DNA of 64,000 bases from positions 47,022 through 111,021 of the forward strand of contig MFGV01000018.1 in NCBI GenBank assembly GCA_001778375.1. Direction: 5' to 3'. A program made the translations under genes and the position numbers. How positions within the stretch are numbered: position 1 is the first letter of the stretch; each line of letters opens with the position of its first letter. Below the pieces are notes generated by a model. The model did not search any database. It was not told the DNA's origin and saw nothing but the letters and a program-made list of their open reading frames with translations. Origin of the DNA: Candidatus Firestonebacteria bacterium RIFOXYD2_FULL_39_29. Its GTDB lineage: Bacteria > Oederibacteriota > D2-FULL-39-29. Shown piece by piece: positions 10,158 through 56,833 of this stretch.

Positions 10158-10177
10158 AAAACCCCACTGAAAACAAA

Positions 10178-15389: not shown

Positions 15390-15400
15390 AGGCCATCCTT

Positions 15401-15577
15401 AGTATTGACAATTGACGATTTACGATTGACAATTTAATGTAGTATTATTTATAATGCACTTGTTAAATTAGCTTTACAAGTTCGTGATATTAAATTCAAT
15501 TCGGCGAATCGTTTCATTTCGCCTTCCTAAAATTGTCAATTGTAAATCGTCAATCGTAAATTTCATTTGATTAAGTA
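15401..15577. mobile_element. TIR-flanked intergenic cassette (MITE-like) 3
   Basis: Left TTGACAATTGACGATTTACGATTGACAATTTAATGTAGTATTATTTATAA and right TAAAATTGTCAATTGTAAATCGTCAATCGTAAATTTC are inverted, and the left arm is shared with cassette 1. The interior hairpin GGCGAATCGTTTCATTTCGCC is followed by TTCCTAAAATTG. Confidence 0.45.
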
Positions 15578-22894: not shown

Positions 22895-24060
22895 TTACTG
22901 TATCTGCAGTGCGTACACTTTTCCGTCAGTTGAAGTAAATGTAATATTTGTATACTCTCCAAACCCGTCATCCCAGCCGCCAAGAACTGGCATTGCTTTC
23001 ACGGCAGCGCCGGTAGTCACAGGCCAGCCGCTTCTGAGAATACCGTCAGAGGCAGAGATACAATAACACCTTCCGTCATCACTTCCGAAATAAACCCACC
23101 CGTTATAAACGATAGGTGAAGATTTTATCGCCCCGGCGGTTGTAAACTCCCATATCGGTGTTCCGGTTTCACCGTTAATCTTGTACATCTTTCCGTTATT
23201 TGCGCCGAAATAAAGCGCTTTTGGAGACTCCCAGGCCCAATAAAACGGAACCGTTTCAATGGCGCTGCCTATATTATAATTACCGTCTTCCTGACCACCA
23301 CGATTCTTCCACCCGTCAGGGATTAACGTAAGATTTACGGAAGAGCGGCAATACATCTTTCCATCAGTTGAGGGTATGAAGAGATTATTTGAGGCTCCAA
23401 ATTGGTATCCGCCGTCAATAAACGGAGAGGACTTTATGCTTGAACCGGTAGTCAGCGTACTCAAGACCTGTCCGTTTACCGTGTTTACTCTGTATAAAGA
23501 ACCCCCTTCAGAGCCTATCCAGCAGGAGCTTACACCCGGAGTAAACTCATCAACAGCTGCCGAGCCGGTCAGATTCCCGGAAATCGCCGTGCTGGTATCC
23601 CAAATAACACTTCCGGTAGCATCGTCTATTTTGAAAAGTTTACCGTTCGCGGCCCCGATATAAATACTTCCGCCGGTCATAATCGGCTCTGCCTTTACAA
23701 CCGCGCCAAGATTAATCGTCCACCCTCCGGTTGTCGTTCCGGAAGTACCCTGATCTTTTATCTTATAGATGTAGCCCGCGTCATTAGCGATATAAATGAA
23801 GGTATTACCGTTTTCCATGGTAACCTGCGGGGCAGAACTAATAGCGCCTGTTGTTTCAAAAGGCACCGTCCATTTAGCGCTCCCGTCATTATTCAGAGCA
23901 TACAGTTTTCCCGCGGAGGAACCCATAAACAGGCCCTGCTCTGTGTCCCTGTTGATTGCGACAGGACTCGTAATCTGTTCGTTAACCGCCGTTGCTACAG
24001 TAGCAGGATATTGCGAGTCAACAGGAGGCGGCGCGGGAGCAAACACCGTAACACCGGTCG
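22895..24060 (-). other. C-terminal PQQ-like beta-propeller of the giant protein
   Basis: Blades GKLYALNNDGSAKW, GYIYKIKDQG, GKLFKIDDATGSVIW, GSLYRVNTVNGQVL, GKMYCRSS, GKMYKINGETGTPIWEF, GRCYCISASDGILRSGW, GKVYALQIQ. There is no T9SS CTD at the extreme C-terminus. Confidence 0.55.
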
Positions 24061-27000
24061 AAGAAACAGGGGCTGAAGCAGCCGTAGCCTGCGTAACATC
24101 ATAATAAGCATCCCTCAAGTAAATATCAGCATCCACAATTGCTTTAAAAGAATTCGGCGAAGCCGCACCGGCATTTGTGGTAAGTTCAGCAACTACAAAA
24201 TACACTGCGCTTGTTCCTTTCTGTATCGTTGCTTCACTTCCGTCAGGAAGAGGCACATTCATTGTCAAAACTCCGCTTCCGTCAAGGGATATGGAACTGT
24301 TCTGAACCGCGGCAAGAACATCCGTATCAAAAGCGGGTTCATAACTTCCGGCAACGCCCGTATTCGCGTTGTCCCTGAATATACTGACGCTCTCAAACAA
24401 CCCCTGCGCCCCGGCAGTAGAAAGGAGAGTTCCGCCTCCATCCGTGAATTTAACATTTACCGATGTCAGTTCTATATTATTCCCCCACGCAGGGCTGGTA
24501 CTCGTCACCGTAATTTTAAGGAGCGCGATCTTTTCGCTGTTATTCGCACTTCCGTTAACGGGAGCGGTATCAGAAACAACTCCGGTGGGTATTGAAGCAT
24601 CATAGGTTATGGCGCTGTTTACAACCTGAGCCGGCGCGCCGTCAGCCGTATCGCTATTGAGTATTAACTTATACGTCGCACCGTCAACTATCTTATTTCC
24701 TTCTATATCGGTGATTACCGCGCCGGAAACTGTCACTGTTTGCGGAGCTGTTACCGCAGTATTAAAACCAAGATCAGAAAGCCTGAACACATGAGGAGAT
24801 TTAGTATCCGTATTTCCGCCGGTCTTGACAAACCATAAAGTATCATTAACCCCGTCGGAAGAATTCTCGCCCAGAGTGATACTTATTTTAAAATTCCTTG
24901 AAATATTTATGGTTGGAGAGCCAAAAGTATTCGCCAAAACCTGAGTTCCCGCACTATTTCGCCGCCCTTCTGTCGGTGTCGCGAAACTTCCAAAGTCACT
25001 GTTATCAACATTTGTATCAACCCCGTTTCTGCCCAGAGTATTCGGAGCAGAAAGACCGCCCGCAGCAGAATTCGCATATAGAACCAGTGTTCCTGTATAA
25101 TCATAATAGACAGAAGGCGTTCCGGACTGCCAGGTCGCCCTGTCTTCCACCTGGCCCGAAGCATTTTCGAGAGCAACAAAATCCGCCGATGAGGTAAGGC
25201 CGTTCGTTGTTCCAAAGGAGTTCTCATATGTAAAGCTGTTTGCCCCGGTATCCGTACTGCTGTTATCCACCGCGGCAAAAGAACCCGCGTCTATATTTCT
25301 GGTAAAAGTAAAATGTTTCCTGTAGGGATTATTTCCGGAAACGGACTGAGAACCTCTTAATATGTATCCGGCAAGCGTCACCGCCGTGCCTCCTGTATTA
25401 TTTAACTCAATAAATTCATCCGCAAGCTGATGATATGAGATCTCATTTATTTTCACGGTACCGGTGACCGCATTAAGCGCGTTTTGAGTCGGCGTCGGAT
25501 CTTTCTCAAGATAATTACTGCCGTCAGAGATTCTTGCAAAAGAAATATCTGATGCGCCTGCAGTAAAGGCGGGCCACTGCACTACATCAATCTGAGTATT
25601 TGAATTATCTTTAAGTTTCACGTATCTAATATTATTCCCGTCCAAATTCGACGAAACGCCGAGTGTAAGTACACTGCCGTTTGTGACGGTAACTCCGGCA
25701 CTTCCTGTCCACACCGCTACATCCGTTCCGGGGCTTGCTATAGTTCCGCTGTTATAAACCAGAGTCCAGCCGCTCAAACCGACATCACTGCCGGTGTCAT
25801 TATAAAGTTCAACCCAGTCCGCGCCTGCTGAAGCTCCGAGCGAATAAACCTCATTAATATGTATATTACCCGTCTGCGGCAAGCAGGACGGATTGTTTGA
25901 AAGAGCAGAATAATTATTGGCCTTATCTTTTGTTTTAATTGCAAAATAATAGGTTACTCCGGGTGTTAAACCCGACAGATATCTTGTCTCCTCTGCGGCG
26001 GCTGTTACCGGCACCCAGGTATTCGGGTAATCTGTTGCATTTTCAAAATCAGTATCATTGGCAATCGGACTTGTCGAATATCTCACTATATACGACCCTG
26101 CTGTATTGTCCGCAGAAACCCCGTTATCTCCGGGAGCAGTCCAGGTAAGTTTTACCTGTCCCCGGGACACTCCCGGCACCGCGGTAAGATTTGTCGTATT
26201 TGAAGGAGCCACCGTGTCTTTTCTTATATAGAAAGCATCCGTAGTCAAAGTGGTCAAGCCCGCATTGTCATACCCTCTTGCCGATACGTAGTTTGTTCCT
26301 TCTGCCAGAGCCGACCAGGCAACAGTCCAGTTTGTCGTGTAAGTCGAGGCATTTATTGACGAAGCAATATTTGTCCAGGCCACAAGATTTGTCCCTGTCA
26401 TTCCGGTGGCAGAATAAACCGTATACTGAACATTATTAAGCAGAGAGGTTGCATCCGAAAAATCAACATTATAGGAGGTACCTGCAGCGTTTCGCCAGGC
26501 TGTATCACCGGACTGATTATTGGTAATCACCGGAGCCACGGTATCTTTTTTTACATAAAACTTATCGGCTTCAATAACGTTATTGCCCGCACCGTCTACT
26601 ATTTTAACGGAAATATTATTTACACCCTCCTGTAAAGCCGTCCAGACTGCGGAAGGAAGAGCCCAATCGGTTGTATAACTGTTATTATTTATTCCGGATA
26701 CCGCATTTGTCCAGTCAGAAAGAAGCGAACCTGTCATGCCGGTTCCTGAATACACTTTCACCTGGTTGTAAGCTAAAAGCGAACCACCTGCATCCGAGAA
26801 ATCCACATTATAGGTGCCATTATTTGAAGTTCTCCACGTATCATCCCCTGCCTGATTATCGGTCATACCCGGCGGATTCGTATCATGCATATCCAGACAC
26901 ATATTCGCGCATCTGTATAAAGAATCTGAAGCTCCGGCATTATGTACAGTCCCGCCGGTCCAGGCAGAGCCCGTCCAATTCCTGGAAGCAATGGTTGCTG

Positions 27001-45000: not shown

Positions 45001-48000
45001 CCGAAATATAATTCACGCCAATCTGGCAGGCGGAAAAATCTATCGTAAAATCCGTAGTATAGGTGGAGGCGCTAACCGTGTTTGCAATATTTGTCCAGTT
45101 CTTAAGCTGCGAACCGGTAAGACCTGTTCCGGAGTAAACCGCATACTGAATATTATTGAGTAAAGAGGCCGTGTCCGAAAAATCCACATTATAGGTTGTC
45201 CCGGAAGAAGCTCTCCAGGTATCGTCCCCCGTCTGGTTATTGGTAACTAAAGGAGGAACCGTATCTTTCTTCACATAAAACACATCATTCTGGGAGGCGG
45301 TATTTCCCGCGTTATCATAAACACGGACGGAGACATAATTGATTCCCTGCTGGCAGGTACCGAAGTCAATGATCCAATCCGGGTTATAGTCAGTGGAATT
45401 AATAGAAGATGAGAAAGTAGTCCAGGGCTTAATCTGGGTTCCGGTCTGCCCCGTTGCAGAATATATCGTATACTGAACATACGAGAGCTGCGAAACTGCG
45501 TCGGAGAAATCCGTATTATAAACGGTACCCGCGGTGGTCCGCCAGGTATCATCTCCCGTTTGATTGTTAGTGATCCCCGGAGCCACGCTATCTTTCTTTA
45601 CATAAAATACATCATTTTGAGAAACGGTATTTCCCGCATTATCATAAGCGCTTACCGAGACGTAATTCGCTCCCTGCTGTAACGAAGCAAAATCCAGTTG
45701 CCAGTCGGTTGTATATGCTGAGGCATTTATTCCCGTTGCAATATCTGTCCAATCTTTAAGCACGGTACCTGTCTGGCCCGTAGCCGCACACACTTTATAC
45801 CGGACGTTACTTAAGAGCGCGCCACCGGTTTCAGAAAAATCAACATTGTAAACAGCACCTGCCGCAGCTCTCCAGGTATCATCCCCCGTCTGATTATTCG
45901 TAACACCCGGCGCAGATGCATCTTTCTTTATATAAAACACATCATTTTGAGAAACGGTGTTGCCCGCGTTATCATAAACTCTCGCGGACACATAATTCGT
46001 TCCCGCGACAAGAGATGCAAAATCCACCTGCCAGTCCGTCGTATAAGTAGTAGCATTTATTCCGGTTGCAATATTTGTCCAGTCCTTTAAAACCGTCCCG
46101 GTTTGTCCTGCCGCAGAACACACCTTGTACTGAACGTTGTTAAGAAGAGAGGTTGCATCCGAGAAGTCCACATTGTAAACCGTACCGGCCTCCGATCTCC
46201 AGGTATCATCGCCCAGCTGGCTTACCGTTATCGCCGGATTAGCTATATCTTTTTTCACATAGAATACGTCATTTTGCACCGCATTATTGCCTACGGTATC
46301 ATAGGCTCTTACAGAAACATAGTTCGTCCCTTCCTGTAAAGAAGAATAGTCCACCTGCCAGTTGGCTGAATAAGAAGAAGAGTTGATCCCCGTCGCAATA
46401 TTAGTCCAGTCCTTAAACTGCGAGCCGGTCCGGCCTGTAGCGCTATAGACAGTGTATTGAACATTATTTAAAAGCGAACTTGCGTCGGTAAAATCCACAT
46501 CGTAGGAAGTTCCAGCCGAGGTACGCCAGGTATTATCACCTGTTTGGTTATTTGTAAAACCGGGAGCAGTTGTATCTTTCTTTACATAGAAGACATCGGT
46601 TTGCGAAACGGTATTTCCTGAATTATCATATGCTCGGACCGAAACATAATTCGTCCCCTGCTGTAAAGATGCGTAATCCACCTGCCAGTCTATGGTGTAA
46701 GTAGCGGCATTTATTCCCGCTGCTATATCTGTCCAATCTTTCAGAACTGTTCCCGTCTGACCTGTTGCGGCGCACACCCTGTACTGGACATTATTAAGAA
46801 GCGAGGTCGCATCAGAAAAATCAACATTATATGTCGTCCCGGAAGCTGCACGCCATGTATCATCCCCGGTCTGGTTGTTTGTTATTCCCGGATTTACACT
46901 GTCTTTCTTAACATAGAACACGTCATTTTGAGAGAAAGTATTTCCCGCATTATCATAAGCCCTGACCGAAACATAATTTGCTCCCGCTTGTAAAGAGGCA
47001 TAATCCACCTGCCAGTCAGTTGTATAAGTAGTCGCGTTTATTCCCGTTGCAATATTAGTCCAATCCTTAAGAACTGTTCCGGTCTGACCTGTTGCTGAAC
47101 ATACTTTGTACTGAACGTTACTAAGAAGCGAGGTCGCATCAGAGAAATCTACATTATATGTTGTCCCTGAGGCGGCTCTCCAGGTATCATCGCCTGTCTG
47201 ATTATTTGTTACTCCGGGATTACCCGTATCCTTCTTCACATAGAACACATCATTTTGAGATACGGTATTTCCCGCATTATCATAAGCCCTGACCGAAACA
47301 TAATTACTCCCCTGCTGTAAAGACGCGTATGCTACCTGCCAGTCAGTTGTGTAAGACGCCGCATTTATATTTGTTGCTATTGTCGTCCAGGTGACCAGCT
47401 GCGAACCGGTCAACCCCGTTGCGGAATAAACAGCGTACTGCGCATAATTTAAATTCGCTCCGCCTGCATCAGTAAAGTCCACATTATATGTTGTTCCCGA
47501 GGCAGCTCTCCAGGTATTATCCCCCGTTTGATTGTTCGTTACTCCGGGATTACTTGTATCTTTCTTTACGTAGAAAACATCGTTTTGTGCCAGCGTGTTT
47601 CCCGTATTATCATAGGCTCTTACCGAAACATAATTCGTCCCCTGTTGTAAAGACGCATAGTCCACTTGCCAGTCGGCAGTATATGTGGCAGCATTAATAT
47701 TGGTCGCTATAGTTGTCCAGGTAACCAGCTGCGAACCGGTCTGGCCCGTAGCAGAATACACGGTATACTGAACATAATTTAATAGCGAGGTCGCGTCGGA
47801 GAAGTCCACATTGTACGTCGTCCCCGCTGCGGCCCTCCAAGTATCATCTCCGGTCTGGTTGTTTGTTATCCCGGGATTCCCTGTATCTTTCTTCACATAG
47901 AACACATCATTTTGAGAAAAAGTATTTCCCGAATTATCGTACGCTCTTACCGAAACATAATTCGTCCCCTGCTGTAAAGACGCGTACGCTACCTGCCAAT

Positions 48001-50938
48001 CCGTTGGATAGGAAGCTGCATTTATATTTGTAGCAATGGTGGTCCAGGTAACCAGCTGTGACCCGGTCTGTCCGGTTGCAGAGTAGACGGTGTACTCCGC
48101 ATAATTCAAAAGCGATGTCGTATCCGTGAAATCCACATTGTAAGCCGTCCCTGCAGCGGACCTCCAGGTATTGTCCCCTGCTTGATTATTTGTCACACCG
48201 GGATTACTTGTATCCTTCTTTACATAGAACACATCATTTTGCGAATAAGTATTTCCCGCGTTATCATAAGCTCTTACCGAAACATAATTCGTCCCCTGCT
48301 GTAAAGACTCATACACTACCTGCCAGTCGGTGGTATAAGAAACCGCATTAATATTTGTTGCTATTGTTGTCCAGGTGACCAGCTGCGAACCGGTTTGCCC
48401 GGTAGCAGAGTAGACGGTGTACTCCGCATAATTCAAAAGCGATGTCGTATCCGTGAAATCCACATTGTAAGCCGTCCCTGCCGCGGACCTCCAGGTATTG
48501 TCCCCTGCTTGATTATTTGTCATACCGGGATTACTTGTATCCTTCTTTACATAGAACACATCATTTTGCGAATAAGTATTTCCCGCGTTATCATAAGCTC
48601 TGACGGAAACATAATTCGTTCCCTGCTGCAAGGATGCGTAAGCCACCTGCCAGTCGGTGGTATAAGAAGCTGCATTTATATTTGTGGCTATTGTTGTCCA
48701 GGTAATCAGTTGAGAACCGGTTTGTCCGGTAGCAGAGTAGACGGAGTACTGAACGTAATTTAAATTCGCCCCGCCGGCATCCGTAAAGTCCACATTATAG
48801 GTTGTCCCTGAGGCCGCTCGCCAGGTATTATCCCCGCCCTGATTATTCGTCACACCGGGTATCGTTGTATCGCAGCCAATATCGGCAGCTGCTTCAGCAT
48901 TAGGTGTTGAAGTCGGATAAGAAACCCACGGAGAACTCCCATTTGCGCCGGTAACTCTCGCCTGCCAGTGATATACATTTCCTGTGGCAAGCGTTACGGT
49001 CACCGAACCCGTTACCGTAGATCCTGAAAAAGCAACACCGGTTCCGGTAAAATTCGCAGTTCCGGTAAAAGAAGTACCGACAGGCTTTATCTCCACCTGA
49101 GGTATTAAAGTTTCGCTTGCGAGCGGTGAGTCCATAGTAAATCTCATAACTGCTGTTGTTTCATTCGTATATTCCCCGGTTGTAAGTACTGTACTTCCAT
49201 TTGCTTTATATTGAACTAATGAAACAGGCGGTTTGGGCGGAAAGAAATATGAATATGTCCCGTTAAATACGCTTCCAAATGATGCCGCATTAGCGTTTAT
49301 GGAATAATTTGCAATAGCAGAAGTTGTTGCCTCAGTTATTTGCCCTGCATTTTTATATACCACGGAATCCCCGTGGGTTTCTGTATTTGTCCTGTGCGAA
49401 ACTGTCTGCGTGCTTGTGGAATTTATCCCCTGTGTTGTCGTATAGTCACCCGTCGTCGAATTGCCGCCGGAAACCGTTCCCTGAGTAATTTCGGCTCTTA
49501 AACCTGCATTTCTTAACGTGAGAGTACCGTTATTTGTACTGTACCAATACGGGAACCAGGTATTGAATGTCTGGTTGGAGGAGGTATTAAAACCGTCAAC
49601 TGACTGACCTGTAAAAATAGAGTAACTATTTGTAAACTTTTTACTTTCTCCGGTATAGTTATAAGTAATAATGAGTTCAACGCCGTATCCTCCTGCTCTT
49701 GCATTATCGCCAAAAGTAATAGATACCGCATCCCCGCTGCTAAAATTCACTTTTTGTTCGGAAAGATCGTGGAGGAAACTAAAACCTGAAACTTGTGCGG
49801 CAGTCACAACCATACTATACGCTCTTTGAGTTACACCAAAGCCTCCGATTGCGGAATCCAGCACGATATTCGAGGCCGTGGTATTATCATAATTACCAAA
49901 TATCAAGGCGTAGATTCTTGAAACCGACACACCCTCTTCTTCCAGATAAATATTATCAGAAACACCTGCTCCGGCCCCGCTTACAAGCTGCCCCAAGATA
50001 TAGCGTACCGTTTTAGTTTTAGTCGCAGAATTGTTATCGCATTCATAAGTAACAACACATTCACCGGAAAGCATATTCAAACTGTTCTGAGTCCAGGTAA
50101 TATCCAGCGACTGATTTGAATTTATGGTAAAACCGGTTAATCCCGTGTTTCCCTGATGATCGAGAAATTTAAAATCATACGAATCTTTAAGTCCGCCGTC
50201 CAGGATATACGTTGAAGAGCCGGAACCCTGCCCTGTAATCTTTACATTCAAACTTCCATCCGTAGTTGAACCGCCGGATTGTCTGTAACCCCTGACTTCA
50301 AACCACTGCTGTCTTACTACAACATTGCTGTCCGCAATATCCGCACGGTAAGAATAAGCTTTGGTCTGCGCGCCCAGAGCTGAAGTTGCCGCAGCAATAT
50401 TAACGTCATAATACAAAGGAAACCTTACCGTTTTTATTTGTATTGAAAAAGTATCATCATATTCATAGGTAATATAAAGTTTTAAAGAATGCCCGTTTAT
50501 AGTAGGACCCGTCACCGTTACCGATGCGGTATACTGTTGGTTGGTTAAAGCAGTAATTGCAGTGGTTACATCCGCTTTTGCATAAAATCTTGAGGCCTCA
50601 CCGGTGGGAAAAAGATATGTTCCTGTTATCGGATCTCTAACCGTGCTTGCAGAAGCTCCGGCATCAAAATTAATATCAAGTCCGGTAATATTCGCGCTTG
50701 TTGAAAGAACTCCTTCAAATTCAAGCCAGGCGCTCCGGATTGTTCTTGTTGTTTCCGGAATGTAAACATTTACGGAAGAAGGCGTCCACGCCGCGCCGCT
50801 GGCAACATTGGTTGCGCTATAATACGAACCAAAACTGTATTCAATAGTTTTAATTCTCGTTCCAGCAAATGAAGTTGCCGCGAGAATCAGTGCAAGCACC
50901 GCCGTCCTGCTAAATATGGTTAACATTTTTCTCATCAT
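22895..50938 (-). CDS. Giant (9,347-aa) secreted repeat-rich surface protein: N-terminal domain, 56 tandem ~109-aa repeats, two FN3+W-blade supermodules, LTD domains and C-terminal PQQ-like propeller
   Basis: Single uninterrupted 28,044-nt ORF with N-terminal signal peptide (MMRKMLTIFSRTAVLALILAATSFAG). The 327-bp periodicity is visible directly in the DNA and protein. Identified by motif: FN3-like (VSWTAPGDDG...YYVAIKAYD), LTD-like (INEVYSLGASAGADWVELYNDTGSDVGLSGWTL; VKINEISYHQLADEFIELNNTGGTAVTLAGYIL), and PQQ blades at the C-terminus. Confidence 0.8.
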   Translation of the reverse strand: MMRKMLTIFSRTAVLALILAATSFAGTRIKTIEYSFGSYYSATNVASGAAWTPSSVNVYIPETTRTIRSAWLEFEGVLSTSANITGLDINFDAGASASTVRDPITGTYLFPTGEASRFYAKADVTTAITALTNQQYTASVTVTGPTINGHSLKLYITYEYDDTFSIQIKTVRFPLYYDVNIAAATSALGAQTKAYSYRADIADSNVVVRQQWFEVRGYRQSGGSTTDGSLNVKITGQGSGSSTYILDGGLKDSYDFKFLDHQGNTGLTGFTINSNQSLDITWTQNSLNMLSGECVVTYECDNNSATKTKTVRYILGQLVSGAGAGVSDNIYLEEEGVSVSRIYALIFGNYDNTTASNIVLDSAIGGFGVTQRAYSMVVTAAQVSGFSFLHDLSEQKVNFSSGDAVSITFGDNARAGGYGVELIITYNYTGESKKFTNSYSIFTGQSVDGFNTSSNQTFNTWFPYWYSTNNGTLTLRNAGLRAEITQGTVSGGNSTTGDYTTTQGINSTSTQTVSHRTNTETHGDSVVYKNAGQITEATTSAIANYSINANAASFGSVFNGTYSYFFPPKPPVSLVQYKANGSTVLTTGEYTNETTAVMRFTMDSPLASETLIPQVEIKPVGTSFTGTANFTGTGVAFSGSTVTGSVTVTLATGNVYHWQARVTGANGSSPWVSYPTSTPNAEAAADIGCDTTIPGVTNNQGGDNTWRAASGTTYNVDFTDAGGANLNYVQYSVYSATGQTGSQLITWTTIATNINAASYTTDWQVAYASLQQGTNYVSVRAYDNAGNTYSQNDVFYVKKDTSNPGMTNNQAGDNTWRSAAGTAYNVDFTDTTSLLNYAEYTVYSATGQTGSQLVTWTTIATNINAVSYTTDWQVVYESLQQGTNYVSVRAYDNAGNTYSQNDVFYVKKDTSNPGVTNNQAGDNTWRSAAGTAYNVDFTDTTSLLNYAEYTVYSATGQTGSQLVTWTTIATNINAASYPTDWQVAYASLQQGTNYVSVRAYDNSGNTFSQNDVFYVKKDTGNPGITNNQTGDDTWRAAAGTTYNVDFSDATSLLNYVQYTVYSATGQTGSQLVTWTTIATNINAATYTADWQVDYASLQQGTNYVSVRAYDNTGNTLAQNDVFYVKKDTSNPGVTNNQTGDNTWRAASGTTYNVDFTDAGGANLNYAQYAVYSATGLTGSQLVTWTTIATNINAASYTTDWQVAYASLQQGSNYVSVRAYDNAGNTVSQNDVFYVKKDTGNPGVTNNQTGDDTWRAASGTTYNVDFSDATSLLSNVQYKVCSATGQTGTVLKDWTNIATGINATTYTTDWQVDYASLQAGANYVSVRAYDNAGNTFSQNDVFYVKKDSVNPGITNNQTGDDTWRAASGTTYNVDFSDATSLLNNVQYRVCAATGQTGTVLKDWTDIAAGINAATYTIDWQVDYASLQQGTNYVSVRAYDNSGNTVSQTDVFYVKKDTTAPGFTNNQTGDNTWRTSAGTSYDVDFTDASSLLNNVQYTVYSATGRTGSQFKDWTNIATGINSSSYSANWQVDYSSLQEGTNYVSVRAYDTVGNNAVQNDVFYVKKDIANPAITVSQLGDDTWRSEAGTVYNVDFSDATSLLNNVQYKVCSAAGQTGTVLKDWTNIATGINATTYTTDWQVDFASLVAGTNYVSARVYDNAGNTVSQNDVFYIKKDASAPGVTNNQTGDDTWRAAAGAVYNVDFSETGGALLSNVRYKVCAATGQTGTVLKDWTDIATGINASAYTTDWQLDFASLQQGANYVSVSAYDNAGNTVSQNDVFYVKKDSVAPGITNNQTGDDTWRTTAGTVYNTDFSDAVSQLSYVQYTIYSATGQTGTQIKPWTTFSSSINSTDYNPDWIIDFGTCQQGINYVSVRVYDNAGNTASQNDVFYVKKDTVPPLVTNNQTGDDTWRASSGTTYNVDFSDTASLLNNIQYAVYSGTGLTGSQLKNWTNIANTVSASTYTTDFTIDFSACQIGVNYISVRVYDYSTQSTTLTDAFYLKKDTTVPVITNNQTGDDTQRSSPGTTYNVDFSDAGGSLLSYAQYAVYSATGLTGSQLKTWTNIASGINASTYTADWEVDFGALNPGATNYISTRVYDSAGNSAQTNDVFYVIKAANLPTVTDNQTGDNTWRTSNNGTYNVDFASTSGANLGYFQTKVTSLSSQGGSVIQDWTTVVTNIGALNYTDNWAILASTWAALAEGVNNVSVRVYDTSGSPNMTEVSDVFFIKKDTVNPSATNNQAGDTAWRSASGTTYNVDFSDATSLLNNVQYIVYSATGQTGSLIKNWTDIAAGISSSSYTTDWTVDFASLSAGTNYVSVRVYDYASSTTVITDAFYIKKDATAPLITNNQSGDDTWRAASGATYNVDFSDAGGSLLNNVQYSVYSGTGQTGTLIKGWTDIATGINASSYDTNWQADFASLQQGLNYISVRAFDNATGTTVLTDSFYVKKDTVAPEITNNQTGDDTWKDAAGTLYNVDFSDSQSLLKSAEYAVYSGTGQTGSLLKGWTLIADNINASTYTGNWAVDFSSLSEGLNYVSVRSTDNNTNQSSLTDAFYIKKDTAGPVITNNQTGDTTWRAGPGTSYDVNFTDNFSLLSNVQYSVWTATGQTGTNAKTWTDIAVNINNAAYTGNWQVDFTALQNGENYVSVRAYDALGHVTTLTDAFFIRKDVGSPAITNNQLGDNTWRNAAGTAYNVDFNDIGNALLDRAEYSIYSATGKTGSLLKNWTVIASGINASSYTANWQVDFTALQQGTNYVSVRVYDNAGNSSALDDVFYILKDVTSPAFTNNQTGDTAWRSSAGTVYDLDFSDAGESKLSYAEYTVYSQTGLTGTPVISWTLIASLIDLNSFTTNWTVDFASLAEGTNYLSVKLHDYSTNTTTLTDAFYVKKDTLGPGITNNQTGDNTWRNTAGTSYDVDFADPGSLIAYMQYSVYSATGQTGTQLKDWTNIAASVNAATYTTNFTVDYMSLQQGTNYVCVRAYDNIGNTTLLKDAFYVKKDTVSPSAAASSPTNSSTLTFNVAFSSSDSPSGIDYVRLYYTSSNGAPYTWTSYGDFTTSPVAFTASAASVYGFRAVAFDLAGNTDETNPPSSSTGPESSTVVDLTAPSILNSQAGDNTWRNTAGTAYDVNFTDAGSSNLNYAEYTVYSGTGQTESQLVTWTTIATNINTASYTTNWQVNYSSLQQGINYVSVRVYDNAGNSAVLTDAFYVKKDVTVPSVTNNQTGDNTWRSAAGTVYNVDFSDNGSLLASAQYAVYSGTGLTGSTIIGWTNIASAINASTYTVDWSVDFASLSSGTNYVSVRVYDNAGNPETLTDAFYVKKDVTVPSVTNNQAGDNTWRSAAGTVYNVDFSDAGGSLLAAAEYSVWTATGRTGIMNKDWTAVASGINASSYTTDWAVDFTSLSQGSNYVSVRITDNAGGSLISEDVFYVKKDSTNPSITNNQTGDNTWRSINDGVYDLDLSDTGGALLSQVETKVYSGTGQTGSLMKDWTIQLSGLNVSSYTSNWGLDASTWSALQQGVNYITVKVTDNAGNSQSLTDAFYIKKDTAAPSITNNQSGDDTWRASAGTTYNVDFSDSGALLSYVQYKVCSATGQTGSVLKDWTDIASGINASSYTSDWTLDFASLLQGTNYVSVRAYDLIGNNSSLNDVFYVKKDSTAPASVTNFAASTGLEGEINVSWTAPGDDGASGTPSGYLVKLKTSGNFTGTDNDFNSAAAYSQSWGASSAGSSENHVLTGLTPALTYYVAIKAYDKAGNYGAISNLTGNFALTGSDTTAPSAITNLNAVTGDYPGQVILTWTTPGDNGSSGNLQSPANGGYTIKYSVSGQINNDTDWGNATTYAQNFVPEPAGTGESRVLSMPLSNTTYYFAVKAYDEVPNTSGLSNSSSATSGMPGAAAGVIMYGDSTNAAPRYMNWTGSAWDPQLNASNATGSIRWVAVKSCPVVRNEKIAGVLSSDGTLSILRWNGQTSTWTTEFTNTGIGSVNNIYRGFDVAYERSTGDCVVVYSKGTTTNEIGCRVWNGSVWANETTVELATTGIVRWVRLEPKTGAETLALATLDANSDIYAMIWNGSSFANGKTLTASASIATRQCYDIAWETTSGNCMIVFGDGNTPMYDYWNGNSWLAVQGAAPDTASTLNWVRLAADTKPGSNNIAFASHDGSADWNTCIWNGSAWGALPAEDSTMAASTYRCADVAWEKDSGKAVFVAVDASATQFSYITWTSGGWSTTPSVAPKDTYIWPSVLRIMSLYSDPNTNKMTLVGLDTNGNIKSRNWTGSAWVGGTAHNTAASDAAYECFGVAFDKHDITPPSIINNQAVDNTWRTSNNGSYNVDFSDAGGSLLSYFQVKVWSSTGQTGTMLADWSTAASGIAGSSYTANWALPAGVWTAMQQGINYVSVRVYDGVGNTAESADVFYVKKDTSSPVLTNNQTGDNTWRTSAGTSYNVDFSDTTSLLNTVQYIVFSGTGQTGTTIVTWTNIASGINASAYTADWQVDFAALAQGTNYVSVKAADYAGIITTTNDVFYVKKDTQAPAVANNQAGDNTWRTASGTAYNVDFTDSGNSLLNYAEYSVWSGTGQTGSQLKTWTSIATNMSTLTYTSDWQVDFTALQQGTNYVSVRVYDNAGNTGSSNDVFYIKKDTGNPGIVNNQLGDNTWRTAAGTSYDIDFNDSTSLLSSAQYIVYSATGQTGATVITWTNIATGINAGTYTSNWQVDFASLQQGSNYVSVRVYDNSGNTVSLTDAFYIKKDTANPTFTNNQTGDNTWRTAAGTTYNVDFADTGNSLLANAQYSVYSSTGMTGSTIIGWTDIASSINSSSYTTDWTVDFNTLAQGTNYVSVRVYDNAGNTNSLPDAFYVKKATQVPVITNNQTGDNTWRIAAGTAYNVDFSDAGGSLLNTASYSVYSGTGQTGSMLKNWTAIAASINASSYSIDWTVDFTSLQEGINYISVKVTDNAGITTTLQDAFYVKKDTANPVVSNSQLGDDTWRNTAGMTYNVDFSDTTALLENAQYAVYSGTGLTGSQLKDWTNIASGINLNSYTANWSVDFTALQQGSNYISVRVYDKAGNTASLNDAFYIKKDTTTPGVTNNQTGDAAWRNVSGTTYNVDFTDSGNSNLSYVEYSVYSATGRTGTQVIDWTTVATSINADSYTTDWSAAFSSLLNGTNYVSVRVFDNAGNSVISDDVFYINKDTSVPAAVNNQAGDNAWQSSAGKMYDVDFTDAGGSKLSYAEYSVWTATGQTGSNLKVWTTLASGINSNSYTSDWSLDFASLQQGTNYVSVRVYDYAGSTAATSDVFYVKKDVSKPAVSNNQLGDNTWRSTAGTLYNVDFTDSGSSLLNNVQYKICSATGQTGSVLKDWTNIASGINSNSYTSDWAIDFTALAEGANYVSVRVYDNAGLTDYSNDVFYVKKDITVPSYTNNQAGDNTWRSASGTLYNVDFSDAGGSDLSYAEYTVYTATGLTGVQVKTWTTISTNINASSYSTDWQTDFASLYEGVNYISVRAFDSAGSSVTLADAFYVKKDTAGPVITNNQTGDTSWRTAAGTTYNVDFIDNFSLLNNTQYKVCSATGQTGSVLKDWTDIAAGINAAAYTADWTVDFTALQQGTNYVSVRAYDNKSNYTGTTDAFYIKKDTTNPGVANNQLGDDTWRKQAGTTYNVDFSDNQSGLSYSEYAVYSATGKTGSNLVTWTTIATNINSSSYTTDWQVNFSALQNGINYVSVRVYDNTGYTAEVVDAFYVKKDTSAPSITDNQTGDDTVRSAPGTVYNIDFSDTGNSLISYMQYAVYNGTGLQGTNVIPWTDIATGVNASTYTDDWQVNFGALEQGVNNYVSVRVYDNAGNSAQSNDLFYIKKAIGLPSVVDNQTGDDTWRKTNTGSYNIDFLSGSGVNLSYFQVKATSAPNQGGSVYADWTNIATSINSTSYYSDWTLPAGVWNALGEGVNYISVRIYDVASNNTVTDDVFYVKKDTVNPGVTNNQAGDNTWRGSAGTAYNVDFSDSGSTLSSVQYSVYSATGQTGSQLKDWTNIASGINSSSYTTDWTVDFTALQQGTNYVSVRAYDSAGNSITSQDVFYVKKDGAVPGVTNNQTGDDSWRSASGTAYNVDFTDAGGSNLSYAEYAVYSGTGLTGSQIKNWTTIASGINVSSYTTDWQVDFASLSEGTNYVSVRAYDNAGNQVQANDAFYVKKDTINPGITNNQTGDDTWRGSSGTAYNVDFTDNGSLLNNAQYAVYSATGLTGSLVKTWTNIVTGINASSYTTDWQVDYASLSEGTNYVSVRVYDNNTNSTVVTDAFYVKKDTQGPVITNNQAGDDSWRKQSGTAYDVDISDSSSLINNLQYSVWTATGQTGSSLKDWTNIAAGINATAYNSNWVVDFSVLQEGTNYVSVRAYDYVGNTSSLTDAFYIKKDVTNPQIANQQAGDDTWRNEAGTVYNVNFTDSGNSNLSYAEYRVYSGAGSTGSLVKDWTTIAAGINAASYTTDWQVDYAALLEGSNYVSVRVYDNAGNTENQQDAFYVKKDVTVPGVTNNQTGDDTWRSAAGTVYNVDFTDAGNSGLSFVQYKIYSATGMTGSVLKDWTSIAAGINSNSYTTDWSVDFSALQEGTNYISVKAVDNAGSSVTVSDAFYVKKDVTVPGVTNNQTGDNTWRAASGTAYNVDFTDTGNSNLSYAQYRVYSGTGLSGSLVKDWTNIATGINAATYTTDWQVDYAVLLQGFNYVSVRAYDNAGSSTGATDVFYVKKDTAGPVITNNQTGDDTWRKAAGTLYNVDFSDAGSLLNNIQYKITSATGQTGVVLKDWTNISASINASTYTTNFTIDFGALSDGFTYVSVRAYDNLSNASVTNDVFYIKKDVLVPEITDSQAGDDTWRSSSGTTYNINFSDLGESNLSYFQYTVYSNAGLAGTMIKDWTTVASSIDAASYTTDWQVDFASLQQGTNYVSVRVYDNALNTAQTNDVFYVKKDTSGPVITNNQTGDDTWRSASGTVYNIDFTDTNSLLNNAEYAVYSGTGLSGSQLKNWTAIASGINASTYTTDWQVDFAALQNGTNYVSVRISDNQTSSTVLTDAFYVKKDALAPSFTNNQTGDNTWRNTAGTVYNVDFSDTGNSNLSYAQYAVYSATGKTGTLIKDWTNIATGINASSYATDWSVDYNVLADGSNYVSVRAYDNAGGVITSDDVFYVRKDSTLPVVTNNQAGDNTWRSAAGTVYDVDFTDAGGSQLSYAQYTVYSGTGLTGSTIKAWTNIASGINAGSYATNWTVDFTALSEGTNYVSVRVYDNSGNTKQQNDVFYVKKDTQGPTITNNQTGDTAWRNAAGTLYDVDFTDNGSLLNNVQYKVTTATGQTGSIRKDWTDIATGLNAATYTTNFTVDFAALQEGVNYVSVRAYDNLTNAVSQNDVFYINKDTTAPSAITNLSVSTGAEGILNLSWKAPGDDAASGTVSNYSVKYKTSAQGNFSGTDVDFNAASTYTHSWASFVAGGSTETRSITGLNANSLYYVAIKPVDKAGSLGGVSNLTGNSGTTGADVTAPSEITSLSAVTGDYAGEVNLSWTAPGDNGTGINLQAPPNGGYTVKYAPTPVTNLATWNAATTYSQSWTPVNAGVTENRTVSGLTPSTTYYFAIRAYDEVPNTGTYGNSPSAVSGAPGAAAGVIIYGSGSLTNPKYELWSGSAWGSEQTATAATATIRWVITKPCPVFRNEKMAGVLSSGGTMSVLKYDGLTNSWQTQWNVSGIGSNNSIYRGFDIAYEQTTGRCMVVYSTGAASNEIAYRIWDGTSWTNETTYDAGTTGIVYWVRLKQRSGTAEIMLATLDANSDIYALRWSGSVWGNGKTLSTAAAVNSKQCFDIAWENTSGKCMVIWGAGTGTTYDQWNGSIWLASQGTGPNIASTANWIRIASDTASSSNNIAFASLSGSSRWDVCVWTGAAWGALPAADTTMEPSDGFRADVAFEKSSGKAVAVAVDFTSTKLSYITWTSAGGWSATPAAAPKDTYDWSNHIRWVQLEPDPNQNKMTAVGIDESATIASRNWTGSAWTGGTVHNAGASDSLYRCANMCLDMHDTNPPGMTDNQAGDDTWRTSNNGTYNVDFSDAGGSLLAYNQVKVYSGTGMTGSLLSDWTNAVSGINNNSYTTDWALPSAVWTALQEGVNNISVKIVDGAGNNVIEADKFYVKKDTVAPVITNNQSGDTAWRNAAGTSYNVDFSDATSLLNNVQYTVYSATGMTGTNLVAWTNIASSINASTYTTNWTVAWSALAEGTNYVSARGYDNAGLTTLTTDAFYIRKDTVAPSNTTNLTAVPGVSRGQVKLTWTAPGDNGVSADNTAGSYIVRYSTSPIANDTDFENATDYPNTWVPVTAAAEETRYLSGLTPGVTYYFAIKTKDKANNYSALSNNPSCLPQTGNIHINEVYSLGASAGADWVELYNDTGSDVGLSGWTLVYNSGTIASPGTDVAVWTGSAGVTVTNGSVLTLGVSSNLDGNNIRYVKLKDNSNTQIDVVQWPAFTAGASDISFARISDGSNYLEKDPTPTQNALNAVTGTVKINEISYHQLADEFIELNNTGGTAVTLAGYILRGSQSVSGNNPYRKHFTFTRNIDAGSFAAVDNSSTDTGANSFTYENSFGTTNGLTSSADFVALENASGQVEDRATWQSGTPSVYYDYTGTLVLYANSAAGGLSAPNTLGRNGVDTNVDNSDFGSFATPTEGRRNSAGTQVLANTFGSPTINISRNFKISITLGENSSDGVNDTLWFVKTGGNTDTKSPHVFRLSDLGFNTAVTAPQTVTVSGAVITDIEGNKIVDGATYKLILNSDTADGAPAQVVNSAITYDASIPTGVVSDTAPVNGSANNSEKIALLKITVTSTSPAWGNNIELTSVNVKFTDGGGTLLSTAGAQGLFESVSIFRDNANTGVAGSYEPAFDTDVLAAVQNSSISLDGSGVLTMNVPLPDGSEATIQKGTSAVYFVVAELTTNAGAASPNSFKAIVDADIYLRDAYYDVTQATAASAPVSSTGVTVFAPAPPPVDSQYPATVATAVNEQITSPVAINRDTEQGLFMGSSAGKLYALNNDGSAKWTVPFETTGAISSAPQVTMENGNTFIYIANDAGYIYKIKDQGTSGTTTGGWTINLGAVVKAEPIMTGGSIYIGAANGKLFKIDDATGSVIWDTSTAISGNLTGSAAVDEFTPGVSSCWIGSEGGSLYRVNTVNGQVLSTLTTGSSIKSSPFIDGGYQFGASNNLFIPSTDGKMYCRSSVNLTLIPDGWKNRGGQEDGNYNIGSAIETVPFYWAWESPKALYFGANNGKMYKINGETGTPIWEFTTAGAIKSSPIVYNGWVYFGSDDGRCYCISASDGILRSGWPVTTGAAVKAMPVLGGWDDGFGEYTNITFTSTDGKVYALQIQ
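24950..25880 (-). other. Two lamin-tail-domain (LTD)-like modules
   Basis: INEVYSLGASAGADWVELYNDTGSDVGLSGWTL and VKINEISYHQLADEFIELNNTGGTAVTLAGYIL fit the LTD pattern I-[NT]-E-[IV]...[DE]-[WF]-[IV]-E-L-[YN]-N...[VL]-x-L-[SA]-G-[WY]-x-L. Confidence 0.5.
26905..28850 (-). other. Supermodule copy 2: two FN3-like domains plus the W-blade domain (paralogous to 38060..40010)
   Basis: Colinear with copy 1: ...NLSWKAPGDDAASG...YYVAIKPVDKAGS..., LQAPPNGGYTVKY...YYFAIRAYDEVPN..., then YELWSGSAWG, VLKYDGLTNSW, YRIWDGTSWT, ALRWSGSVWG, YDQWNGSIWL, DVCVWTGAAWG, YITWTSAGGWS, SRNWTGSAWT. It ends ...CLDMHD. Confidence 0.65.
28850..38060 (-). repeat. Tandem array C: repeats 27-54 (28 units)
   Basis: Same 109-aa consensus. 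W-variant repeats are at unit 27 (NWALPAGVWTAMQQG) and unit 41 (DWTLPAGVWNALGEG). Confidence 0.7.
38060..40010 (-). other. Supermodule copy 1: two FN3-like domains plus a ~430-aa domain with eight W-N-G-S-x-W blades
   Basis: FN3 motifs (INVSWTAPGDDGASG...YYVAIKAYDKAGNYG; VILTWTTPGDNGSSG...YYFAVKAYDEVPN). Eight spaced motifs follow: YMNWTGSAWD, ILRWNGQTSTW, CRVWNGSVWA, AMIWNGSSFA, YDYWNGNSWL, NTCIWNGSAWG, YITWTSGGWS, SRNWTGSAWV. It ends ...AFDKHDI. Confidence 0.65.
40010..41650 (-). repeat. Tandem array B: repeats 22-26
   Basis: Five consecutive 109-aa units with the same consensus. Repeat 25 is a W-variant (NWGLDASTWSALQQG). Confidence 0.7.
41650..41975 (-). other. Divergent ~105-aa beta-sandwich/FN3-like domain interrupting the repeat array
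   Basis: Translated segment SPSAAASSPTNSSTLTFNVAFSSSDSPSGIDYVRLYYTSSNGAPYTWTSYGDFTTSPVAFTASAASVYGFRAVAFDLAGNTDE does not follow the repeat consensus. Confidence 0.5.
41975..48870 (-). repeat. Tandem array A inside the giant gene: repeats 1-21 of the 327-bp/109-aa unit
   Basis: Protein repeats 1-21 share the consensus NPG[VI]TNNQ[TA]GD[DN]TWR..AGT.YNVDF[ST]D....L....Y.VYS.TG.TGS.L..WT.IA.GINA..YT.DW.VD[FY]..L..G.NYVSVR.YD..GN.....DVFYVKKD. Approximately 46200..48870 the DNA copies are near-identical. Confidence 0.75.
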
Positions 50939-51270: not shown

Positions 51271-51509
51271 ATTCCTTTGCTTCTTTTACTTCATTTACTT
51301 CGTTTTCTGCATTTGCTTCACTTGCTTCCTTCCTCAGCTTCTCCTCGGGAATCCCGTGCAGGAGGGCTGCTTGATAGGCCCTGCATTGCATTTCCCGCAG
51401 GCAAGGGTGGAGGTTTCAAATATTTTTTGCGATTTTAAAGCAGGTTTTTGATATTTTGTTTTTTTAAGCTTCTTTTTTTTTCTCATTTTGCCACCTTATC
51501 CCGATTTTT

Positions 51510-51647: not shown

Positions 51648-51705
51648 CACCCAGGTGGATTTCGCGAAGACTTATGGTCTGATATTTAGACTTCGCTCAA
51701 CTTTA
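51648..51705 (+). repeat. 60-bp repeat element, copy E (overlaps 3' end of peptidase ORF)
   Basis: CACCCAGGTGGATTTCGCGAAGACTTATGGTCTGATATTTAGACTTCGCTCAACTTTAC. Confidence 0.6.
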
Positions 51706-52085
51706 CTCACTACATGCATAATTTTATTATACATGTTCTCTTCTACTACACCAATTATATCACTTTTATTTATTTTATGCACTACCGAATCCTTAGAATC
51801 ACCTTCAACTGTGATCAGACCTGTTTTATTGTTCATTCCCGTTATTCTATGTATCAAGAACCATGACCGTGTTTTATAGCAGATAATAGATCCTACTTTC
51901 ACTTGTTTAGAATTTATAATTTTGATCTTAGAATTCGCCCTGATAGTCGGACTCATTGACCCGCCAAACACTTTAATACGAATACTTCCTTTATTTATTA
52001 TTTCATCAGCTATTATATCTCGAGCTATTTTTTTATTCACCCCTGGGAAATCCCCCATGAAGCAAATAGGTCGGTGTCCGGTCAT
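51672..52085 (-). CDS. S24/S26-family serine peptidase-like protein (LexA/signal-peptidase fold; Ser-His variant)
   Basis: 137 aa. VFGGSMSPTIRANSKIKIINSKQVKVGSIICYK...FLIHRITG...ITVEGDSKD matches the G-[DG]-S-M-x-P-T ... [KH]-R-[IV] ... GD pattern. His replaces the usual general-base Lys, as in SipW/Sec11-type enzymes. The last ~10 codons overlap a copy of the 60-bp repeat element. Confidence 0.4.
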   Translation of the reverse strand: MTGHRPICFMGDFPGVNKKIARDIIADEIINKGSIRIKVFGGSMSPTIRANSKIKIINSKQVKVGSIICYKTRSWFLIHRITGMNNKTGLITVEGDSKDSVVHKINKSDIIGVVEENMYNKIMHVVSKVERSLNIRP

Positions 52086-55498: not shown

Positions 55499-55560
55499 CC
55501 GCCCAGGCGGATCTTGCAAAGGGTTTATGGTCAGATATTTATACCTTTGCTCAACTCCCC
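55499..55560 (+). repeat. 60-bp repeat element, copy F (between rSAM gene and V4R-like gene)
   Basis: CCGCCCAGGCGGATCTTGCAAAGGGTTTATGGTCAGATATTTATACCTTTGCTCAACTCCCC. Confidence 0.7.
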
Positions 55561-56579: not shown

Positions 56580-56833
56580 TTTTGAATTATTTTCCCGGCA
56601 AGAAGCTCCCTAATAAAAGCAACAACATCTTTTTCTGCCCTGACCTCGGAGATATCGTATTCCGACGCAAGTTTCTTTACCATACTGTTTTCAGCGGTAT
56701 TCTTTACTAACAATTTGAAAAGAAAAGTTCCGGTTGAATTTAATTTTACCAATTTCATCTTTTCCGGCTGAACGATATAATAACTGTTCTTGATCAACCG
56801 TGCCGCCACACCGCTTTTTATTTTATACGCCAT
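56573..56833 (-). CDS. PqqD-family peptide chaperone (RRE-type) protein
   Basis: 86 aa. The pattern (YYIVQPEKMKLVKLNSTGTFLFKLLVKNTAENSMVKKLASEYDISEVRAEKDVVAFIRELLAGKII) fits PqqD/RRE (L-x-L-N-x-[ST]-[GA]...[IL]-W...[DE]-[IV]...F-[IL]-x-x-L...G-[IL]-I). It overlaps the rSAM gene start by 7 nt. Confidence 0.5.
   Translation of the reverse strand: MAYKIKSGVAARLIKNSYYIVQPEKMKLVKLNSTGTFLFKLLVKNTAENSMVKKLASEYDISEVRAEKDVVAFIRELLAGKIIQKC

Follow-up and report, generated by a model that had tools for sequence, protein, structure and literature searches.

What does a bacterium encode in 28 kb of DNA that is read as one gene? The question arises from a 64,000-nucleotide stretch of the genome of Candidatus Firestonebacteria bacterium RIFOXYD2_FULL_39_29 (contig MFGV01000018.1, positions 47,022 to 111,021), here called the window. 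All positions below refer to it, unless another locus is named. In the open reading frame (ORF) listing, 22895..50938 on the minus strand is a single ORF that starts with ATG, and its translation runs for 9347 aa to a sole, terminal stop codon. A single giant ORF without internal stop had been claimed by an earlier note on this DNA, which named no strand, and the claim is correct. The sequence evidence indicates a real and complete gene, whose product belongs to a conserved family of giant secreted proteins. This product is probably an adhesive fibre of the cell surface.

The giant protein and its repeated unit

The protein has a mass of 998 kDa, a pI of 4.3 and 23% serine plus threonine. It starts with a predicted signal peptide (aa 1-26, MMRKMLTIFSRTAVLALILAATSFA|G; 50861..50938, on the minus strand like all modules of this gene). 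The segment of aa 5-26 is the only one above a Kyte-Doolittle value of 1.6 across the entire protein, and the same scan found no membrane-spanning segment beyond this leader. After the hydrophobic leader comes SFA|GT. The homologs are arranged alike, with TR[IV]KT[IV]E[YFW] right after the predicted cleavage site. We placed the cleavage after aa 26 from the hydrophobicity and the leaders of the homologs, and the earlier prediction of a signal peptide is supported in this way. In Pfam scans of the giant protein, no enzyme domain (hydrolase, peptidase or toxin) was recognised. Only three families exceed the thresholds: fn3 (fibronectin type III, FN3; 53.0 bits, gathering cutoff 25), LTD (lamin tail domain; 72.9 bits, cutoff 34.3) and PQQ_2 (51.8 bits, cutoff 27.6). 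The composite of FN3, LTD and PQQ modules that had been described is confirmed by these values. The protein is predicted to be non-enzymatic and exported by Sec across the inner membrane via a cleavable signal peptide.

A hidden Markov model (HMM) built from the first 8 repeat units finds exactly 56 units in the protein, the number counted before. Each has 109-115 aa, with E values from 2e-31 to 3e-66. The units form four blocks: 1-21 (aa 696-2998, 41945..48853), 22-26 (aa 3101-3651, 39986..41638), 27-54 (aa 4299-7374, 28817..38044) and 55-56 (aa 8025-8246, 26201..26866). Their alignment gives the consensus xTNNQTGDxTWRxAAGTxYNVDFSD...NYVSVRxYDNAGN...DVFYVKKDTxxP, with a mean column identity of 67%. 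It agrees with the one quoted in the earlier note.

The same note could not assign the unit to any named family, and this holds for the curated models. Taken singly, all 56 units stay below the thresholds of Pfam and NCBIfam. Big_13 (PF19077) comes closest: 12 units match it on their C-terminal hairpin with E≤0.01, the best with 3.4e-4. When three units were scanned jointly, Glucodextran_B reached 29.7 bits (cutoff 27) with no individual stretch significant, and Big_13 25.5 bits (cutoff 27). An OmpL47-type match had 24.5 bits against a cutoff of 40. These three families share with the unit an immunoglobulin-like (Ig-like) sandwich and a C-terminal 'YvsvrayDnAGN' hairpin, and they match weakly that half of the unit. 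However, single units stay below their cutoffs, and the N-terminal half (NNQxGDxTWR...YNVDF) has no counterpart in them. A PDB sequence search with three units and a profile search with the 56 units gave nothing significant. A match to OmpH in the PDB search (E 0.08) was dismissed as chance.

AlphaFold2, run on the 56-unit alignment, predicts with confidence an all-beta sandwich (predicted local distance difference test, pLDDT, 93.8). The structure comparison recognises it as a two-sheet Ig-like sandwich, which is a structural class and not a family. By this model, the unit has a generic Ig-like fold, as the alternating pattern of residues had led the earlier note to guess.

A variant subtype of 113-115 aa (…SNNG.YNVDF…F/VQ.KV.S…W.LP..VW.AL…) is present in units 14 (aa 2118-2232), 25 (aa 3430-3542), 27 (aa 4299-4411), 41 (aa 5838-5950) and 55 (aa 8025-8137). 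One such unit stands immediately after each of the two propeller inserts described below. The homologs keep the subtype at the same positions.

Could the array be a product of the assembly? The mean identity between units is 62% in nucleotides and 60% in amino acids. At third codon positions it is just 42%, near saturation, and the longest exact repeat across the 28 kb has 78 bp. From these values, the units are ancient duplicates under purifying selection, neither recently expanded nor made by the assembler. The most similar pair is units 2 and 3 (90% identical nucleotides). Units 1-10 are the most alike, with 65-90% nucleotide identity between neighbours, and units 1-5 share 76-90% with one another. 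In this part the number of units could have been misassembled from short reads. The count of the first block (n1 = 21) also lacks cross-validation, as a homolog (P0008) has 19. Nevertheless, we consider it very improbable that the array was collapsed, expanded or joined as a chimera that stayed by chance in frame. The synonymous divergence of the units is strong, their counts match those of an ortholog, and the 28 kb have no stop. Moreover, independent metagenome-assembled genomes (MAGs) show the modules in the same order and again with 5, 28 and 2 units.

Other modules and the order of the family

The leader is followed by a head (aa 27-560, 49259..50860) of tandem jelly-roll sandwiches that resemble carbohydrate-binding modules (CBMs). 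Segments of ~140 aa recur in it, each ending in '...ITYEYD'. It is uncatalogued, with no match in Pfam, NCBIfam or PHROG. The model of the head presents three well-defined jelly-roll sandwiches (pLDDT 74, predicted TM-score 0.82), and its likeness to CBMs comes from generic fold matches. Jelly-rolls matched in BFVD had TM-scores of 0.1-0.2 only, and we discarded them as too low. The head is 37-45% identical to the N-termini of family members, and P0008, P0013, P0014 and P0029 carry TRxKTxEY after the signal peptide. About 38 other relatives are stand-alone proteins of 540-710 aa (mostly 630-710), with 19-28% identity. Most of them are leaderless and begin directly with MATRxKTVEY. Two stand-alone relatives are found at L003 8001-9902 and L001 8001-9629: one in a phage-like gene string, beside a PHROG head protein and before a protein of 1376 aa, the other on a contig of archaeal type, not far from genes for RNA polymerase Rpb subunits. 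Searches of PHROGs with the head and its stand-alone relatives gave no other match than this adjoining head protein.

Next to the head there is a domain of ~135 aa (aa 561-695, 48854..49258), found at the same position in P0008, P0013, P0014, P0029 and L005. It has no family match. The pattern YHWQARV...G.SPW suggests an FN3-like beta domain. Between units 21 and 22 stands a divider of 102 aa in single copy (aa 2999-3100, 41639..41944), which matches weakly Big_3_2 (E 0.01). P0008, P0157, P0158, P0012 and P0010 carry the divider at this point too, and in each of them 5 units come after it.

Two paralogous inserts of 650 aa, 58% identical to each other, interrupt the array. Each consists of two FN3 domains and a Trp-rich module of ~420 aa. 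In the first, the FN3 pair (aa 3652-3880, 39299..39985; fn3 32.9 bits, cutoff 25) precedes Trp-rich module 1 (aa 3881-4298, 38045..39298). In the second, the FN3 pair (aa 7375-7605, 28124..28816; fn3 43.5 bits) precedes Trp-rich module 2 (aa 7606-8024, 26867..28123). Module 1 has ~8 repeats of ~50 aa that end in W-x-G-x-x-W, and module 2 presents the repeat motifs too. In module 1, six W-x-G-x(1-3)-W/F motifs were found by pattern and two more repeats were read by eye. With no Pfam match for the module, these repeats suggest an 8-bladed propeller. The earlier list of modules was right for FN3, LTD and PQQ; it had overlooked both inserts and the divider.

The Trp-rich module has 49 stand-alone relatives (P0205-P0253), mostly of 500-720 aa with few shorter fragments. 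They come from bacteria and archaea, some of these Bathyarchaeia, are 24-39% identical (mostly 30-37%) and have almost no Pfam annotation. A strongly hydrophobic N-terminal segment is present in 33 of the 49. Since many carry class III or type IV pilin-like motifs at the N-terminus (GFSVLEVILAAAIF, RGLSNII, KALSPVIG, AGLEYIL), the stand-alone module is predicted to sit on pilus-like surface appendages.

The C-terminal part begins with an FN3 domain followed by two lamin-tail domains (aa 8247-8650, 24989..26200; Pfam fn3 and LTD, the latter with 72.9 bits in 2 stretches). Then comes the X region (aa 8651-8990, 23969..24988), conserved and with no Pfam match, which is found in every full C-terminus among the homologs. 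The last module is a PQQ/BamB-like beta-propeller (aa 8991-9347, 22898..23968; PQQ_2 51.8 bits, Beta-prop_ACSF4 119.5 bits). The protein terminates in the last propeller strand. The complete C-termini of the homologs do likewise (8/8), and none has the C-terminal domain (CTD) of the type IX secretion system (T9SS). Within this protein, the 109-aa Ig-like unit, the jelly-roll head and the Trp-rich propeller represent three domain families that no curated model covers.

An exhaustive HMMER search with the unit profile covered 1.84 billion cluster representatives. It gave 1,059 matches at E≤1e-3 and 211 at E≤1e-30. Among the matches were proteins of 4,000-7,200 aa, in which the units number up to 44. 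A word-indexed search had returned just 6 fragments, and the near-uniqueness that it implied was overturned. The unit had been called previously undescribed. It is only uncurated: it occurs in those 1,059 representatives, and NCBI already has a dozen homologous giants from MAGs. The cluster look-up shows that these are annotated as hypothetical, LTD-containing or PQQ-propeller proteins.

Giant homologs of 4,000-8,000 aa come from MAGs of Firestonebacteria, Elusimicrobiota, Endomicrobiia and Omnitrophota. Among them are MEK6647536.1 of Candidatus Firestonebacteria ('PQQ-binding-like beta-propeller repeat protein'), HBA59975.1 and PKN02033.1 (7,997 aa) of Elusimicrobia, MEF3280437.1 and MBN1824066.1 of Elusimicrobiota and Endomicrobiales ('lamin tail domain-containing protein'), and the partial RKY30446.1 of Omnitrophota. 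The earlier note had pointed to Omnitrophota and to the Fibrobacterota-Chlorobiota-Bacteroidota group. The first stands with one partial homolog and the second does not, as the lineages of the family are Firestonebacteria and Elusimicrobiota.

We mapped the unit HMM and the other modules of the window protein onto ten homologs, with the family defined by P0007, P0008, P0012, P0014, P0016, P0029, P0157 and P0158. The common order is signal peptide, jelly-roll head, ~135-aa domain, n1 units, divider, 5 units, FN3-FN3-propeller, n2 units, a second FN3-FN3-propeller, 2 units, FN3, two LTDs, X region and PQQ propeller. The window protein follows it. Because ten homologs share one module order, the composite architecture is a trait of the family and not an idiosyncrasy of this protein. 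Unit counts are also kept. The 28 units between the propellers recur in P0007 of Firestonebacteria, the 5 after the divider in several homologs and the 2 before FN3-LTD in eight.

Compared with the giants of Firestonebacteria and Elusimicrobiota, the window protein has the same head, unit, divider, FN3-FN3-propeller inserts and FN3-LTD-LTD-X-PQQ end in identical order. On the other hand, many Elusimicrobiota homologs have, here and there along the chain, a second domain type of ~95 aa ('YYWRVRA.D.AGN') that the window protein lacks. At 9347 aa and 56 units it exceeds every other member found, and in this set no other protein has both ends intact as well as the two propeller inserts. Over the last 400 aa, its identity to P0007 is 56%. 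Among species-representative genomes, the closest match of this end is in the Candidatus Firestonebacteria MAG JAPLKO010000009 (51% identity), where the downstream genes are syntenic too, with 53-74% identity. These matches point to a relative of Firestonebacteria, and not to the Fibrobacterota-Chlorobiota-Bacteroidota group, as the most likely source of the window. The protein is, by sequence, a new complete member of an uncharacterised family that was already sequenced.

Previous works found giant proteins enriched in Elusimicrobiota and related phyla, without functional assignment (PMC11573180; bioRxiv 10.1101/2023.11.21.568195; PMC12057145). The giants of Omnitrophota are described as mostly transmembrane-anchored multi-enzyme or Pfam-repeat proteins (10.64898/2026.06.07.730766). 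In PMC11573180, 10.1101/2023.11.21.568195 and 10.64898/2026.06.07.730766, word searches met neither lamin-tail nor PQQ-propeller domains, and these three studies contain no description of the giant-fibre family, its unit or its grammar. Likewise, a literature search on giant adhesins of Firestonebacteria or Elusimicrobia returned no paper containing 'lamin tail domain'.

Neighbouring genes

The genes given here with window coordinates are on the minus strand. The next gene downstream of the giant one (20537..22786) encodes a PQQ-like propeller that carries a T9SS type-A CTD (Por_Secre_tail 32.2 bits, cutoff 27; TIGR04183 28.7 bits, cutoff 23), as had been noted. Its CTD region matches PorZ weakly: the 24.5 bits fall far short of the equivalog cutoffs for PorZ and PorQ. 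The propeller of this neighbour and the C-terminal propeller of the giant protein are paralogs (26% identity, E 1e-10). The giant protein itself has no type-A CTD: its last 2101 aa match neither Por_Secre_tail nor TIGR04183 nor any other NCBIfam T9SS model at E≤0.01, which agrees with the earlier note.

The following ORF (18738..20450) encodes an outer-membrane barrel of the PorV/PorQ family (NF033709, 191 bits, cutoff 90). It joins an N-terminal four-helix-bundle of the 23S rRNA intervening sequence protein (IVP) type (aa 1-120) to the barrel (aa 159-439). The syntenic locus of a Firestonebacteria MAG (L007) has the PorV part alone, and an Endomicrobiia MAG (L006) has a separate IVP gene directly upstream of its giant gene. 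The ORF is probably two genes or has a wrong start. A nucleotidyltransferase of the NTP_transf_5 family and an ABC-2 transporter with ATPase and permease lie further downstream (13993..16390; family matches). In L007, a CTD-propeller ortholog (53% identity) follows the giant gene, then comes the PorV part (74% identity), and NTP_transf_5 and the ABC-2 transporter stand in the same order with 59-66% identity.

Other genes were observed on this side. A TMEM260/PMT-like GT-C glycosyltransferase with C-terminal tetratricopeptide repeats (16549-18666) adjoins the operon of the Ser/Thr-rich protein. O-glycosylation of the fibre by this transferase was considered, and the link is weak, the gene being absent from L007. 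Its association with the operon may be incidental. An exopolysaccharide locus (135-13201) encodes a Wza-like exporter, a GNVR/Wzc-like kinase, Wzy, Wzx, glycosyltransferases and a PIG-L deacetylase. Its ATPase resembles the XrtA/PEP-CTERM-associated one (224 bits, below the 324.5 cutoff). The GC content falls to 0.31 at window positions 1-4000. On the other, upstream side, at 61644-63983, there is a second pair of a PorV/PorQ-family barrel (175 bits) and a cargo, which has a CarboxypepD_reg domain and matches Por_Secre_tail below threshold (24.9 bits, cutoff 27). A cargo followed by its own PorV-like barrel appears to be a recurrent arrangement in this genome.

Upstream of the giant gene there is a small lysine-rich peptide with cysteines (~50 aa, MRKKKKLKKTKYQKPALKSQKIFETSTLACGKCNAGPIKQPSCTGFPRRS; 51334..51486). 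Homologous peptides are located beside the same genes in Elusimicrobia HGW-1 (L005) and in L006. In the three lineages they have ~48-50 aa, with a K-rich leader followed by KIFETxxLACGKCxAG...C...S*. The copies lie at 7433-7582 in L005 and at about 1590-1740 in L006, where the gene was uncalled. The peptide has no NCBIfam match, and looks like an uncatalogued precursor of a ribosomally synthesized and post-translationally modified peptide (RiPP).

The next gene (51672..52085) encodes an S24/S26-like peptidase of 137 aa (GGSMSP...HRITG; Peptidase_S24 22.4 bits). Its best match is the archaeal/ER-type signal peptidase I TIGR02228, with 31.4 bits below a cutoff of 51.85, and there is a weak match to SipW. 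The enzyme and its orthologs (L005, L006, P0013 and P0029) have GG[S/C]M.P, where the putative nucleophile is serine in 3 cases and cysteine in 2, and F[LM]HR is conserved. In P0013 and P0029 the peptidase is fused in frame to the giant protein. A dedicated signal peptidase of the giant protein, by analogy with SipW and TasA, was set aside. A role as leader peptidase for the neighbouring Cys peptide seems more likely, because inspection reveals no clear N-terminal membrane anchor and because it always occurs with the radical SAM and PqqD genes and the peptide.

These two genes are, by family matches, a radical SAM/SPASM protein (55551..56579) and a PqqD-like chaperone (56573..56833), with an HprK-related protein (56818..57516) further upstream. 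A V4R regulator and two histidine kinases are also encoded upstream of the giant gene. In L005 the string of PqqD, radical SAM/SPASM, peptide and peptidase is directly adjacent to the giant gene. In L006 the same string is upstream, with AAA_22 fragments and the 23S rRNA IVP gene in between. Thus, the upstream genes accompany the family in L005, L006 and the fusions P0013 and P0029, and the pair of CTD-propeller and PorV in L007 only. The upstream string looks like a RiPP-type cassette travelling with the giant gene.

The 730-bp gap between peptidase and giant gene includes three direct-repeat copies of 90-118 nt (68-83% identical; 51178-51702). Each holds the near-palindrome TCCACCTGGG(C/T)GGA. 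Rfam gave only a sub-threshold chance match in this upstream intergenic region, and the repeats could be a regulatory or repetitive extragenic element. Just upstream of the HprK-related, PqqD and radical SAM genes lies an AbiEii/AbiEi type IV toxin-antitoxin pair (57513-59235).

A proposed surface fibre and its alternatives

By analogy with other large surface proteins, the giant protein would be a cell-surface adhesive fibre that docks at the outer membrane through its C-terminal propeller. We give this reading a probability of about 0.55. Together, the 56 Ig-like units, the FN3 domains, the divider and the LTDs make ~65 beta-sandwich domains, which would form a long, acidic and Ser/Thr-rich rod. 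An Ig-like domain is ~4 nm long, so the rod might extend for a few hundred nanometres. The two Trp-rich propellers would punctuate it, between the CBM-like jelly-roll head at the N-terminal end and the PQQ/BamB-like propeller at the C-terminal end. Head and internal propellers might be the binding modules, and the Ig-like array a spacer, whose length would be conserved because the unit counts are. The C-terminal propeller would be the cell-proximal end, docked via the paralogous CTD-propeller, itself held by the PorV/PorQ-like barrel. We take this docking pair to be comparable to PorZ-PorQ, with a match to PorZ far below the cutoff. For the binding modules, the proposal relies on the Ig-like fold of the unit and on the pilin-like N-termini of the Trp-rich relatives.

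Several points weigh against the proposal. The term adhesin derives from domain types and analogy, and the homologs are all uncharacterised. No known outer-membrane secretion signal (type A CTD, type I secretion system (T1SS) or RTX features, autotransporter barrel) was found in the giant protein. Docking from propeller to propeller is pure inference, and the polarity of the fibre could be reversed. The propeller fold of the Trp-rich module is read from sequence, and the model of the head is moderately confident (pLDDT 74), with generic fold matches. The downstream synteny is seen in one other genome only (L007).

Alternatively, a released fibre could be the scaffold of an exopolysaccharide matrix or sheath, where head and propellers cross-link the polymer of the adjacent locus into a biofilm or capsule mesh. 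The Wza/Wzc/Wzy/Wzx/glycosyltransferase cluster with its PEP-CTERM-associated-type ATPase, located 10-22 kb downstream on the same strand, agrees with this, as do the CBM-like head and the lack of a membrane anchor in the giant protein. Synteny with exopolysaccharide genes has no support elsewhere, though, as L007 stops short of that region, and the conserved partners (CTD-propeller and PorV) point instead to attachment at the outer membrane. We regard such a scaffold as unlikely. Could the giant protein be a T9SS-dependent adhesin, secreted like the product of the neighbour gene? The SprB-type gliding adhesins of Bacteroidota are giant, Sec-exported surface filaments of repetitive beta-sandwiches. 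The window protein is like them in these traits, with a size and an Ig-like build reminiscent of SprB. It has a Sec signal peptide, and the two PorV-family genes and two CTD-bearing cargo genes within the 64-kb window may also speak for this idea. However, the missing CTD already disfavours it: the last 2101 aa match no T9SS model, and in 8 of 8 family members the chain stops in the final strand of the propeller. Besides, the repeat family is another one, the terminal domain is a propeller, and no PorP/SprF-type gene was noticed beside the giant gene. A SprB-type adhesin is therefore improbable.

A role in predation or in attacking cell walls, as proposed for the giants of Omnitrophota, is highly doubtful. 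The related phyla where giant genes are common and the one partial homolog labelled Omnitrophota could favour it. Conversely, the described Omnitrophota giants are mostly anchored by transmembrane helices and multi-enzymatic, and in comparison with those published descriptions the window protein has neither multiple transmembrane helices nor cell-wall enzymes. With no hydrolase, peptidase or toxin domain, nothing was found in support of the predation association that the earlier note had raised.

The adhesive fibre can also be compared with other known systems. In the RTX/T1SS adhesins (LapA, SiiE, MpIBP), a rod of tandem Ig-like extenders separates the ligand-binding modules from a retention module at the opposite end. 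The giant protein would share the long tandem Ig-like rod. Unlike them, it has a Sec leader, no match to HemolysinCabind or another RTX family and no T1SS signal. No T1SS genes are adjacent, the sole nearby ABC transporter being ABC-2/DrrA-like. PilY1-like proteins are propeller adhesins of the tip of type IV pili. The likeness to them and to large minor pilins is in the stand-alone Trp-rich relatives with type IV pilin-like N-termini, and suggests that the Trp-rich propeller may bind at the surface much as a pilus-tip propeller does. This is by analogy only. The propeller is here twice embedded within a giant polypeptide without pilin segment. The PorZ-PorQ pair of T9SS resembles the neighbour genes, a CTD-bearing beta-propeller followed by a PorV/PorQ-family barrel. 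Nevertheless, the propeller of the neighbour is PQQ/BamB-like, the PorZ and PorQ equivalog cutoffs are far from reached, and its anchoring role is inferred. The giant protein can be classed with the giant Ig-repeat surface fibres already known, as a variant set apart by its module set, the lack of a known secretion signal for the outer membrane and its conserved partners.

A broader scenario would join the fibre, the CTD-propeller with PorV, and the cassette of radical SAM, PqqD, Cys peptide, peptidase and ABC transporter in one conserved appendage system of Firestonebacteria and Elusimicrobiota. A fibre of 1 MDa, lacking any known signal for secretion through the outer membrane, would be exported and docked by a new route, in which its propeller attaches to that of a CTD protein bound by PorV. 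The Cys peptide, once modified by the radical SAM enzyme, would serve the PQQ-like propellers or the deployment of the fibre as a ligand, cofactor or signal. We consider it speculative and quite unlikely.

This locus provides a complete reference member, the longest found, for one uncharacterised giant family. Its defined module order, three unmodelled domain families and conserved partner genes make concrete experiments on binding, anchoring and secretion possible. If the protein is merely another long adhesin, the practical value would be a better annotation of roughly a thousand database clusters. If it is true that the fibre reaches the surface without a known outer-membrane signal, it would point to an undescribed route of export or attachment.

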